Below are positions 31,873 to 48,385 of a stretch of 64,000 nt of DNA, one piece after another (the stretch's first letter is position 1; each line of letters opens with the position of its first letter). The translations under genes were made by a program, and so were the position numbers. Origin of the DNA: Candidatus Bathyarchaeia archaeon (lineage in GTDB: Archaea; Thermoproteota; Bathyarchaeia; Bathyarchaeales; Bathycorpusculaceae). The stretch is taken from positions 32,001 to 96,000 of the forward strand of contig JBEKOM010000004.1 of NCBI GenBank assembly GCA_049521795.1, in the 5' to 3' direction. The notes beneath the pieces are model-generated. The model was not told where the DNA came from. It was given only the letters and a program-made list of their open reading frames with translations, and searched no databases.

Positions 31873-32415
31873 ATGGGCGAAGAGCAGGAAGAACAGCCAA
31901 AGAGCGATGAACAAATCGAATCGCTCAAAGAGGCTGTGGAAACGGAGAAGAGACGTTCAGAAGATTACCTTACGCAGTTGAAGTATGCCCAAGCGGACAT
32001 CGAGAATCTCAAGAAGAGGTTCGACCGGCAAGTATCTGAAGTGAGGCAGTACGCTAATGAACGCTTAGTAATTGAACTGTTGGATGTCGTTGATGAGTTG
32101 GAGTTGGCCATCAAATCTGGCCGCTCTTCAGGCTCTGCGGAAGCGCTGATCCAAGGCGTTGAGTTGACCCTCAAGAAGCTCCGAAAAATCTTGGAAAACG
32201 AGGGTGTCGTGCCGATAAAGTGCGTAGGTGAAGCTTTCGACCCTTCAAAACACAGCGCTGTTGCGAAAATCGAAAAGGAAGGCGTCGAAGGGTGTAAGAT
32301 AGTTGAAGAAGTGCGGAAGGGCTATACGATGAGAGAAAAGGTGATTAGACCGAGCATAGTTAAGGTTGTCGTGAAACCTTCAAAATCACAAGAGGAGATG
32401 AATTCAAATGAGTAG
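31873..32415 (+). CDS. grpE: Nucleotide exchange factor GrpE
   Basis: AD.EN.KKR, GE.FDP..H.A, KGY....VIRP..V; upstream of dnaK. Confidence 0.95.
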
Positions 32416-47834: not shown

Positions 47835-47912
47835 GGGCAAAAAAATCACCATCTGCCATAACAAGCTATTTTCTCAAACGAGCCAGAAACTTGACCCCAC
47901 GGTGAAAAATGG

Positions 47913-48115
47913 TGGTGGGGCCGGCCGGATTTGAACCGACGACCTTTACCCGGAGACAGTGCTTTCGGCGCTGCTCCTACGGGTTTCTCCTGACAGCTCC
48001 AGAACCTCTTCATCCCCTTTTGAGGTCCGCAAACCCGTTAGCTACTTTCTGGAGCCCGTCGTCATACCTTAGCCGATCGATCAATCGGTCGATCGACTGC
48101 CTAGACTACGACCCC
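47913..48115 (-). tRNA. trnW: tRNA-Trp(CCA) with three introns (D-loop, 37/38, 43/44) and encoded 3' CCA
   Basis: Minus strand: GGGGTCG TA GTCTAGGC [hairpin intron ~48070-48098] AGGTATGAC G ACGGG CT CCA G [intron 47985-48048] ACCCGT [intron 47946-47978] AGGTC GTCGG TTCAAAT CCGGC CGGCCCC A CCA. Acceptor, anticodon and T stems all pair. Confidence 0.92.
47985..48048 (-). ncRNA. Intron-encoded box C/D-type guide RNA in pre-tRNA-Trp
   Basis: The intron contains guide ACGGGTTT + D'-like CGGA, C'-like ATGAAGA, and guide TTCTGGAGC complementary to the anticodon loop GCTCCAGAA. Confidence 0.7.
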
Positions 48116-48257
48116 ACGGCCACACTGAGAAGGACTTGCCAGATTTTAAATATATGCATTATTGCGTCAAGAACAGAATCTGTGCATATGCCAAAAATCC
48201 GAGAAGACATATCAGCCTGGAGCGATAAGCTTATGAGCATAGGGTTGTCGTCTAGTT

Positions 48258-48385
48258 TGGGGTTTGCCGGTCATAGGGCGCGGGTCCCACCTGATCCCAT
48301 ACCGAACTCAGAAGTTAAACCGCGCTCCGTTTCCGGCTGTAATTTGGTCTTCGGCCATGTGAACCCGGAAAAGCTGGTAACCCCA
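48258..48385 (+). rRNA. rrf: 5S rRNA (unlinked from 16S/23S)
   Basis: GCCGGTCATAG...CACCTGATCCCATACCGAACTCAGAAGTTAA conserved core; terminal pairing TGGGGTT/AACCCCA. Confidence 0.93.

Follow-up and report, generated by a model that had tools for sequence, protein, structure and literature searches.

A likely three-intron tRNA-Trp gene in a Bathyarchaeia archaeon, with a putative box C/D-like guide intron beside a 6-nt exon

The 105-nt transfer RNA (tRNA)-Trp intron of Haloferax volcanii and Pyrococcus sR50 are described as box C/D guide RNAs for Cm34 and Um39. The primary papers on this euryarchaeal guide intron are reportedly Clouet d'Orval 2001, Bortolin 2003, and Singh 2004. In Sulfolobus solfataricus, the 65-nt tRNA-Trp intron is described as lacking consensus C/D boxes, as complementary in two stretches to positions 34 and 39, and as a very stable circle in RNA-seq data (Danan et al. 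2012, PMC3326292). Multi-intron tRNAs are also reported, with as many as three introns in Thermoproteales and five intervening sequences in Asgard archaea. Here, we describe a tRNA-Trp gene of a Candidatus Bathyarchaeia archaeon (GCA_049521795.1) that carries one insert in the D-loop, one at position 37/38, and one at position 43/44, the last two enclosing an exon of 6 nt. The window, by which we mean the whole 64,000-nt stretch of DNA that was analyzed, covers positions 32,001 to 96,000 of the forward strand of contig JBEKOM010000004.1. We consider it likely that the locus is a working, and apparently the only, tRNA-Trp(CCA) gene of this genome, that its three introns are spliced, and that the order of their removal follows a kinetic bias and not an obligatory sequence of steps.

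Layout of the gene and its conservation among relatives

The 203-nt pre-tRNA was located at window positions 48115-47913 on the minus strand, corresponding to 79913-80115 on the contig. Reading of the window sequence bore out all coordinates of a preliminary description of the locus, as well as the two motifs quoted in it (CTCC-AGA...GGAG-AAA and ACCC-GTA...GGGT-AAA). It had proposed a tRNA-Trp with three inserts and a 6-nt exon, and joining the four exons by coordinates in a script indeed gave a sequence that ARAGORN identified as tRNA-Trp(cca), 77 nt long and folding into a normal cloverleaf. Its acceptor stem has 7 bp and its anticodon stem 5 bp (ACGGG/CCCGU), the D-loop measures 9 nt and includes the conserved GG, the variable loop measures 5 nt, and the T-arm is normal. 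The boundaries of the D-loop insert, previously left uncertain, were narrowed to three placements that are equivalent owing to direct repeats (48098-48070, 48097-48069, and 48096-48068); direct repeats at the other junctions allow insert 3 to slide by up to 3 nt (AGG) and insert 2 by 1 nt (A). The gene is laid out as follows.

48144..48155, minus strand: TATA-like A/T-rich box ATATATTTAAAA, ~30-40 nt upstream of tRNA base 1, read from the sequence
48099..48115, minus strand: exon 1 (17 nt; 19 nt in the placement that fits the bulge-helix-bulge motif, BHB), acceptor 5' strand, U8 A9, D-stem 5' strand, and D-loop start
48070..48098, minus strand: intron 1, a 29-nt D-loop insert forming a 10-bp hairpin, from sequence and folding
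48049..48069, minus strand: exon 2, D-loop remainder, D-stem 3' strand, G26, then ACGGG as the anticodon-stem 5' strand, and CUCCAG as the loop that holds anticodon CCA
47985..48048, minus strand: intron 2, 64 nt, position 37/38, putative box C/D-like guide intron, from sequence, conservation, and a relative's RNA
47979..47984, minus strand: exon 3, the 6-nt micro-exon ACCCGU (A38, C39-U43), from sequence and relatives
47946..47978, minus strand: intron 3, 33 nt, position 43/44, from sequence, folding, and covariation
47913..47945, minus strand: exon 4, variable loop AGGUC, T-arm, acceptor 3' strand, A73, and encoded CCA
47905..47909, minus strand: five-T run, likely transcription stop, 3 nt past CCA, read from the sequence

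Archaeal promoters have a consensus and spacing on which the TATA-like box was called, and oligo-T stretches act in archaeal termination, which is the basis for the likely stop. A similar TATA-like stretch was found upstream of the gene in one relative (L033).

To place the gene among its relatives, we sampled homologous genes from 141 loci, which gave 125 distinct sequences, by a search that required an exact 19-mer. At least 122 exact-pattern matches were found in species-representative genomes, almost only in metagenome-assembled genomes (MAGs) of Bathyarchaeia/Bathyarchaeota. Among the matches listed, more than 120 relatives had the same or nearly the same exons, the 37/38 intron was present in all parsed sequences, and the 43/44 intron, and hence a 6-nt exon flanked by introns, occurred in 111/125 distinct sequences; the D-loop insert was carried by 21/122 and an intron at 28/29 by 4/125, while 13 distinct sequences shared the architecture of the window (D-loop, 37/38, and 43/44) and three had four introns. 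Within the genus, the D-loop insert and the 43/44 intron were variably present in genomes whose exons were otherwise identical, and no other evidence at the level of sequence argues as strongly that they are introns which can be removed and that their junctions lie here. The architecture goes beyond chance, because relatives lack one or another insert at the exact junctions and retain the same exons. The combination of introns 2 and 3 thus appears to be the normal state of tRNA-Trp in Bathyarchaeia, and the present case would not be singular.

Further interruptions were seen in some relatives. In the three four-intron sequences (L020, L022, and L025) and in L031, all from the same order, the anticodon stem is interrupted by an extra intron at 28/29, whose motif is canonical (central helix GACG:CGUU), so that the four-intron genes read D-loop + 28/29 + 37/38 + 43/44. 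Two members of the same class but of another order (L173, G107:C1 ~398.7 kb, and L176, G076:C5 ~25.5 kb) have tRNA-Trp genes with apparently five interruptions, parsed by eye in the D-stem, at 28/29, 37/38, and 43/44, and in the T-loop, their non-canonical inserts being 15-20 nt long with common GGCGGA/TCCGCC-like stretches.

The 37/38 guide-like intron and the 43/44 intron

In this genome, intron 2 has a BHB motif with a complete central helix (CUCC:GGAG, 47990-47987, 4/4 pairs) and 3-nt bulges AG/A and AA/A. Across 109 relatives, the four central-helix pairs were held in 109, 109, 80, and 41 sequences, so that the 37/38 motif is generally relaxed. The core of the intron was far better conserved than its ends and contains, from 5' to 3', an 8-nt guide, one spacer base, CNGA, a 4-bp stem-loop, RAUGANGA, two bases, and UUCUGGAGC. 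In the studied genome these elements are placed as follows.

48031..48038, minus strand: putative D' guide ACGGGUUU, complementary to AAACCCGU
48026..48029, minus strand: putative box D' CGGA, CUGA in many relatives (CGGA in 57/108, CTGA in 36/108)
48007..48025, minus strand: predicted kink-turn (K-turn) stem-loop CCUC-AAAA-GGGG with box C' AUGAAGA (48013-48007), from covariation in 109 sequences
47996..48004, minus strand: putative second guide UUCUGGAGC, complementary to G31-A38' (GCUCCAGAA)

The D' guide paired with AAACCCGU at 8/8 positions, G-U pairs allowed, in 93/108 unique parsed introns. Box C/D ribonucleoproteins (RNPs) follow the N+5 rule, and here C39 faces the fifth nucleotide upstream of box D', counting through the guide and the single spacer nucleotide, as this rule demands. 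The four stem-loop pairs were kept in 109/109, 109/109, 92/109, and 74/108 sequences, and the second, third, and fourth of them showed 13, 54, and 18 double changes, respectively. Box C' was invariant as ATGA.GA, boxes D' and C' were invariant at their key G, A, and C positions, and the closing pair between the C of box D' and the G of box C' was retained in 109/109; D'/C' can form a canonical K-turn with a stem, a 3-nt bulge, tandem G·A/A·G pairs, and a G:C pair.

The second guide, complementary to the anticodon loop, was likewise conserved, with TTCTGGAGC found in 93/108 parsed introns. It would bring C34 to N+5 only if box D started 2 nt downstream (GUCA, 47994-47991), where the tetramers were GTCA in 51, GTTA in 15, GTCT in 10, and GTGA in 7 of 108 introns. 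An exon stretch, AUGACGA (window 48059-48065, minus strand, tRNA bases 21-27), differs from box C RUGAUGA by one mismatch and may supply the terminal box C that was not found in the guide intron itself, although the corresponding sR40 alignment reached 13.8 bits, where the gathering score is 50. AUGACGA imposes a U13·U22 mismatch in the D-stem and was kept in all loci parsed for the census, in which it served as the parsing anchor itself; some other relatives have AAGACGA. An outer helix between the 5' part of the intron and the stretch past the second guide was considered and discarded, as it was only 50% paired.

We also observed that some same-genus genomes (L013, L026, L032, and L052) carry a variant 37/38 intron in which a second anticodon-loop complement, GUGGAGCC-like, takes the place of the ACGGGUUU guide; the 43/44 intron is missing from these genes as well.

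A covariance model built from the Bathyarchaeia introns (R1) gave one full-length match per genome in 54/151 sampled Thermoproteota genomes, with rough E-values: the studied genome itself, 5 genomes of its family, 9 of its order, 4 of its class, and 35 of other classes. Two of the 35 other-class matches (L178 and L179) were inspected by eye, and both lay inside tRNA-Trp genes with D-loop and 28/29 introns and no 43/44 intron. This distribution points to an ancient tRNA-Trp intron.

The locus was further compared with assembled contigs of four metatranscriptome runs, one of which, a peat run (X15), was informative. Runs X16, X17, and X20 yielded contigs only over the conserved T-arm of other Bathyarchaeia, which then diverged. 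In a 94-nt contig of X15 (record 3), the first 30 and the last 33 bases aligned at a single place, offset by 64, and the joint led from the predicted 3' end of intron 2 (GGAGAA) to its 5' start (AAAG). In our reading of the assembler behavior, this contig is a 64-nt cycle, because 94 = 64 + 30 is how a 31-mer graph prints one. The contig gives direct support that the intron 2 of a near relative is excised at 37/38 and circularized. A 101-nt contig (record 1) extended without splicing from exon 4 through intron 3 and exon 3 into intron 2, and could be either precursor RNA or contaminating DNA.

In the 43/44 intron, the central helix, ACCC:GGGU (47951-47948), is bordered by bulges GU/A and AA/A and by an intron helix (GGAG.../...CUCC), and the motif was assigned to the relaxed helix-bulge-helix type because no exon-exon outer helix is evident. 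In an alignment of 100 of 102 distinct sequences (two with a different 18-nt insert were excluded), C39-C41 paired with an invariant GGG in 100/100 and A38 with U in 59/100, and the bulges read G42-U43-A on the 5' side and A-N-A on the 3' side. The four intron pairs adjoining the bulge were formed in 100/100, 100/100, 99/100, and 86/98 sequences, with 29, 41, 34, and 11 double changes. The covariation score of this motif was reached by 0/500 shuffles, and sliding the partner by 1-3 columns lowered pairing to 24-60% versus 88%; on its own, the motif made up 59% of the folding ensemble. Taken together, these data argue for a well-supported helix-bulge-helix motif in which the exon would supply one strand of the central helix and through which intron 3 would be removed.

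Competing pairings, order of splicing, and the D-loop insert

The micro-exon is complementary to three partners, as the preliminary description had noted: ACGGG of the anticodon stem, GGGT at the 3' end of intron 3, and ACGGGTTT in intron 2, which is the complement of AAACCCGT. Since C39-C41 can pair with only one of these at a time, the precursor must switch conformations. Conformer energies were computed from this genome's sequence with the nearest-neighbor model of ViennaRNA. The minimum free energy (MFE) fold of the primary transcript (-77.7 kcal/mol) had the intron 3 motif, the anticodon loop paired to the second guide, and no anticodon stem; forcing the anticodon stem and the 37/38 helix gave -74.5 kcal/mol, 3.2 above the MFE, and forcing the pairing of the first guide with the micro-exon gave -72.5 kcal/mol. 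With intron 3 removed, the anticodon stem and the 37/38 motif became the MFE structure (-62.8 kcal/mol). With intron 2 removed instead, the intron 3 motif was still formed in the MFE (-58.3 kcal/mol), and the anticodon stem had to be forced (-56.6 kcal/mol). In this model, folding would fit a bias toward cutting intron 3 first.

From the mutually exclusive pairings, it had been proposed that refolding, methylation, and splicing follow one obligatory, fixed order, in which the 6-nt exon serves each partner in turn in cis. The folds just described are in favor of such an order, as the nascent structure holds the intron 3 motif and the C34 guide duplex at the expense of the anticodon stem and the loss of intron 3 releases that stem, and so is the joint occurrence of introns 2 and 3 in 111/125 distinct sequences among the matches listed. 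However, the conformers differ by only 3-5 kcal/mol, and relatives without intron 3 (14/125 distinct sequences, again among the matches listed) keep the guide intron. Further, the homologous Haloferax guide is described as working in trans from the excised intron, so that pairing of the guide with the micro-exon need not occur in the precursor. Against it stands also a second cyclic contig of X15 (record 2), of 116 nt = 86 + 30, running through intron 2 and the 6-nt exon and 17 nt into intron 3 (window 47962-48048), in which the 5' site of intron 2 was cut and the exon 3/intron 3 junction was intact. Its break lies within the apical loop of the intron 3 hairpin, and no BHB-like motif was seen by eye at the break of the 86-nt circle. 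This contig shows the other splicing order at least as a by-product. An obligatory pathway is therefore not upheld, folding giving a bias only, and we regard it as rather unlikely.

A related and still more doubtful proposal, to which we attach little weight, would make intron 3 a conserved cis-acting timer that holds C39-C41 and keeps the anticodon stem open while the guide RNP of intron 2 methylates C34 on the nascent precursor; excision of intron 3 alone would then license the anticodon stem, the 37/38 motif, and the release of the guide intron. Within this proposal, the exon box C (AUGACGA, bases 21-27) may complete the guide RNP and so tie its assembly to the unspliced precursor.

The explanation that we prefer, a working gene with three spliced introns and a kinetic bias, would run as follows. 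A precursor of ~210 nt would be matured by a broad-specificity endonuclease of the heterotetramer type and the RtcB ligase. The nascent transcript would fold with the intron 3 motif and the C34 guide duplex; intron 3, a putative Bathyarchaeia-wide addition whose splicing motif borrows A38-C41 of the 6-nt exon, would tend to leave first, upon which the anticodon stem and the 37/38 motif would form and intron 2 would be cut out. After excision, intron 2 would be circularized, and it would double as a box C/D-like guide that places C39, and probably C34, for 2'-O-methylation by fibrillarin/Nop5, with C39 perhaps methylated in trans by the free intron.

The D-loop insert was absent at the exact site in two same-genus genomes (L003 and L005), whose D-loops were identical. 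Placed in canonical register, the boundaries given in the preliminary description scored 2/4, because of which the third equivalent placement (48096-48068) was preferred; it has a central helix AGGC:GCUA with 3/4 pairs and two 3-nt bulges, AG/U and AG/G, beside which the intron helix is paired at 4/4 positions (7 bp in all) with the D-stem alongside. By comparison, all 15 distinct D-loop introns of other Bathyarchaeia, which lie 2 nt upstream, had a perfect CUAG:CU(A/G)G helix, and 13/15 had 4/4 intron-helix pairs.

The genome encodes two EndA paralogs, alpha at C1:264687-265244 and beta at C5:55404-55973. The alpha paralog is nearest to the catalytic subunits of Sulfolobus tokodaii and Aeropyrum pernix, aligns gaplessly through the Crenarchaea-specific loop, and has Lys at the K44 position, and according to the account of Hirata et al. 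a K44-type residue and this loop confer cleavage of D-loop and bulge-helix-loop substrates. The second paralog is nearest to the M. jannaschii enzyme, has Thr at the position of the catalytic His, and is expected to be a structural beta subunit. Genes for RtcB, fibrillarin, and Nop5 are also present, the latter two adjacent to each other. The broad-specificity splicing endonuclease that such a gene had been said to need is thus encoded, with an alpha subunit bearing the Crenarchaea-specific loop and a beta subunit without the catalytic His.

An alternative is that the D-loop hairpin is never spliced and is either retained in the mature tRNA as a solvent-exposed expansion or inactivates the gene. 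It would be in keeping with the lack of a canonical BHB, with the absence of any RNA contig across insert 1 in the metatranscriptome runs examined, and with an Asgard preprint that describes only a third of overlooked D-arm inserts as lying at canonical motifs. We find it quite improbable, as the gene is the sole tRNA-Trp found, same-genus genomes without the insert have an identical D-loop, one placement offers two 3-nt bulges around a 3-bp helix beside the 7-bp intron helix, an Aeropyrum enzyme with the same loop is described as cleaving D-loop and bulge-helix-loop substrates, and the D-loop inserts of other Bathyarchaeia, 2 nt away, all have perfect motifs. From the sole Trp gene, the identical D-loop of sister genomes, and the fitting enzyme type, we infer that intron 1 is removed; it would be a hairpin with a weakened motif, inserted recently and at the level of the genus.

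Several observations weigh against the explanation that we favor. The X15 contigs come from near relatives and not from the studied genome, and their variants and the junction were found neither in that genome nor in any relative locus examined. In the four runs, no contig covered intron 1, positions 48050-48115, or an exon-exon joint, no removal of introns 1 or 3 was seen, and the mature tRNA-Trp of the studied organism was not found among the RNA contigs. The 86-nt cycle runs counter to an early exit of intron 3, and energy differences of ~3 kcal/mol are within the error of a model that ignores proteins. For intron 1, the 3/4 helix is obtained in one of three equivalent placements only, and five same-genus variants score 2-3 of 4 (six sequences in all). 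The fourth pair, and so the complete 37/38 helix, is kept in only 41/109 relatives. As to the guide, neither a conserved terminal box C (RUGAUGA), sought in the variable 5' part of the intron, nor a box D (CUGA) consensus was found in 108 parsed introns, Rfam C/D families scored far below threshold on intron 2, and the predicted function in 2'-O-methylation rests on analogy.

Detection of the gene and comparison with known systems

Standard tools missed the locus. Default ARAGORN found 0 genes in the window, and Rfam at the gathering threshold reported only a 5S rRNA gene there, its tRNA model passing over tRNA-Trp; when one intron was allowed, ARAGORN recovered the same ends but wrongly assigned the gene to Asn(att), with an intron of 111 nt. 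Permissive Rfam matches were at chance level (tmRNA, 22 bits, on the T-arm; sR40, 13.8 bits; sR14, 9.7 bits) and were set aside. The 5S rRNA gene (window 48263-48382, plus strand, 70.2 bits) lies ~150 nt from the tRNA-Trp start, and the two are transcribed divergently from a shared spacer that contains the TATA-like box of the tRNA.

Whether this is the only tRNA-Trp of the genome (2.44 Mb, 69 contigs, 98.75% complete), a check that the preliminary description had called for, was examined with ARAGORN, Rfam, and BLAST, and no second one was found. Among 47 ARAGORN calls with introns allowed and 40 Rfam tRNA matches in the whole genome, there was no other Trp(CCA) gene; BLAST of the locus against its own genome returned no second copy, only itself and a T-arm match in tRNA-Pro, and two additional tRNA-like matches were not Trp. 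A loose scan for anticodon-loop and T-loop patterns gave 136 matches, all noise except the known locus, and was not used. The locus is thus apparently the only tRNA-Trp(CCA) gene of the genome. The ARAGORN intron-mode calls over the whole genome also contained no Phe or Tyr tRNA, so that detection is incomplete, and several of the 47 calls had improbable anticodon positions and odd intron sites. Because of these missing calls and the many odd intron positions, hidden, interrupted tRNA genes seem to be the rule in this genome, suggesting that it holds many multi-intron or non-canonical tRNA genes. The three introns are not mobile or repeated elements by our search, since blastn-short against the genome returned only themselves and chance 11-19-mers.

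That the locus is a decaying pseudogene, with the functional tRNA-Trp in an unassembled part of the genome, is scarcely credible, since the fragmented assembly and the incomplete detection that might allow it are set against intact exons identical to those of many relatives, introns that retain their motifs and guides, a TATA-like box and a T-run flanking the gene, and a full homologous gene including the 5' half in 30/32 parsed relative loci (2/32 had no recognizable 5' half).

Partial copies were noted elsewhere. L035 (G009:C15) and L048 each have a second tRNA-Trp-like copy, absent from the studied genome, that starts only in the D-loop, has no acceptor or D-stem 5' half upstream, and carries a longer, divergent 37/38 intron; the copy in L048 lies ~5.5 kb from the intact gene. 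They could be truncated duplicates, the 3' part of a split tRNA, or tRNA-derived guide-RNA genes.

With these results, the range of tRNA genes with many interruptions, and that of the old guide intron of tRNA-Trp, reaches into Bathyarchaeia, an abundant uncultured lineage of sediment and peat whose genes of this kind are overlooked or mis-typed by standard tRNA finders. For annotation, an apparently "missing" tRNA-Trp in Bathyarchaeia MAGs is an artefact of intron architecture. With a 6-nt exon common to two splicing motifs and one methylation guide, the gene is a compact natural system for fold choice, suited to asking whether splicing and guided modification are ordered. Our literature search, which was incomplete and did not extend to GtRNAdb-type resources, found no prior description of Bathyarchaeia tRNA introns.

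As far as the published accounts describe them, the Haloferax and Pyrococcus guides share with intron 2 the same host tRNA, the position 37/38, two antisense elements for 34 and 39, a competition of guide duplexes and splicing motif for the same bases, and a circular excised intron. Unlike these guides, the present intron is 64 nt long, has only the internal D'/C' K-turn recognizable and no consensus terminal boxes, faces a C and not a U at position 39, and has a second intron abutting the target strand. The Sulfolobus intron, compared by description, is closer, belonging to the same phylum, measuring 65 versus 64 nt, and sharing the absence of consensus boxes, the 34/39 complementarities, and the circle; its tRNA-Trp is described there with one intron only (PMC3326292), whereas two further introns are present here. 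Common descent with tRNA-Trp introns of other classes would fit, since R1 matches one site per genome in 35 other-class genomes. With the tRNAs of Thermoproteales and Asgard archaea, as reported, the gene shares several EndA-type introns per tRNA, non-canonical positions, relaxed motifs (hBH, HBh', and BHL), an alpha2beta2 endonuclease with the specific loop, and D-arm inserts overlooked by standard finders; it differs from them in its Bathyarchaeia lineage and in that one of its introns would be a guide RNA targeting a tiny exon between two introns. Each element, namely the tRNA-Trp guide intron, relaxed motifs, the alpha/beta EndA, and multi-intron tRNAs, is thus already known, and what is new is the lineage together with the conserved side-by-side placement of the guide intron and a second intron, which draws the target of that guide into its splicing helix and leaves a 6-nt exon.

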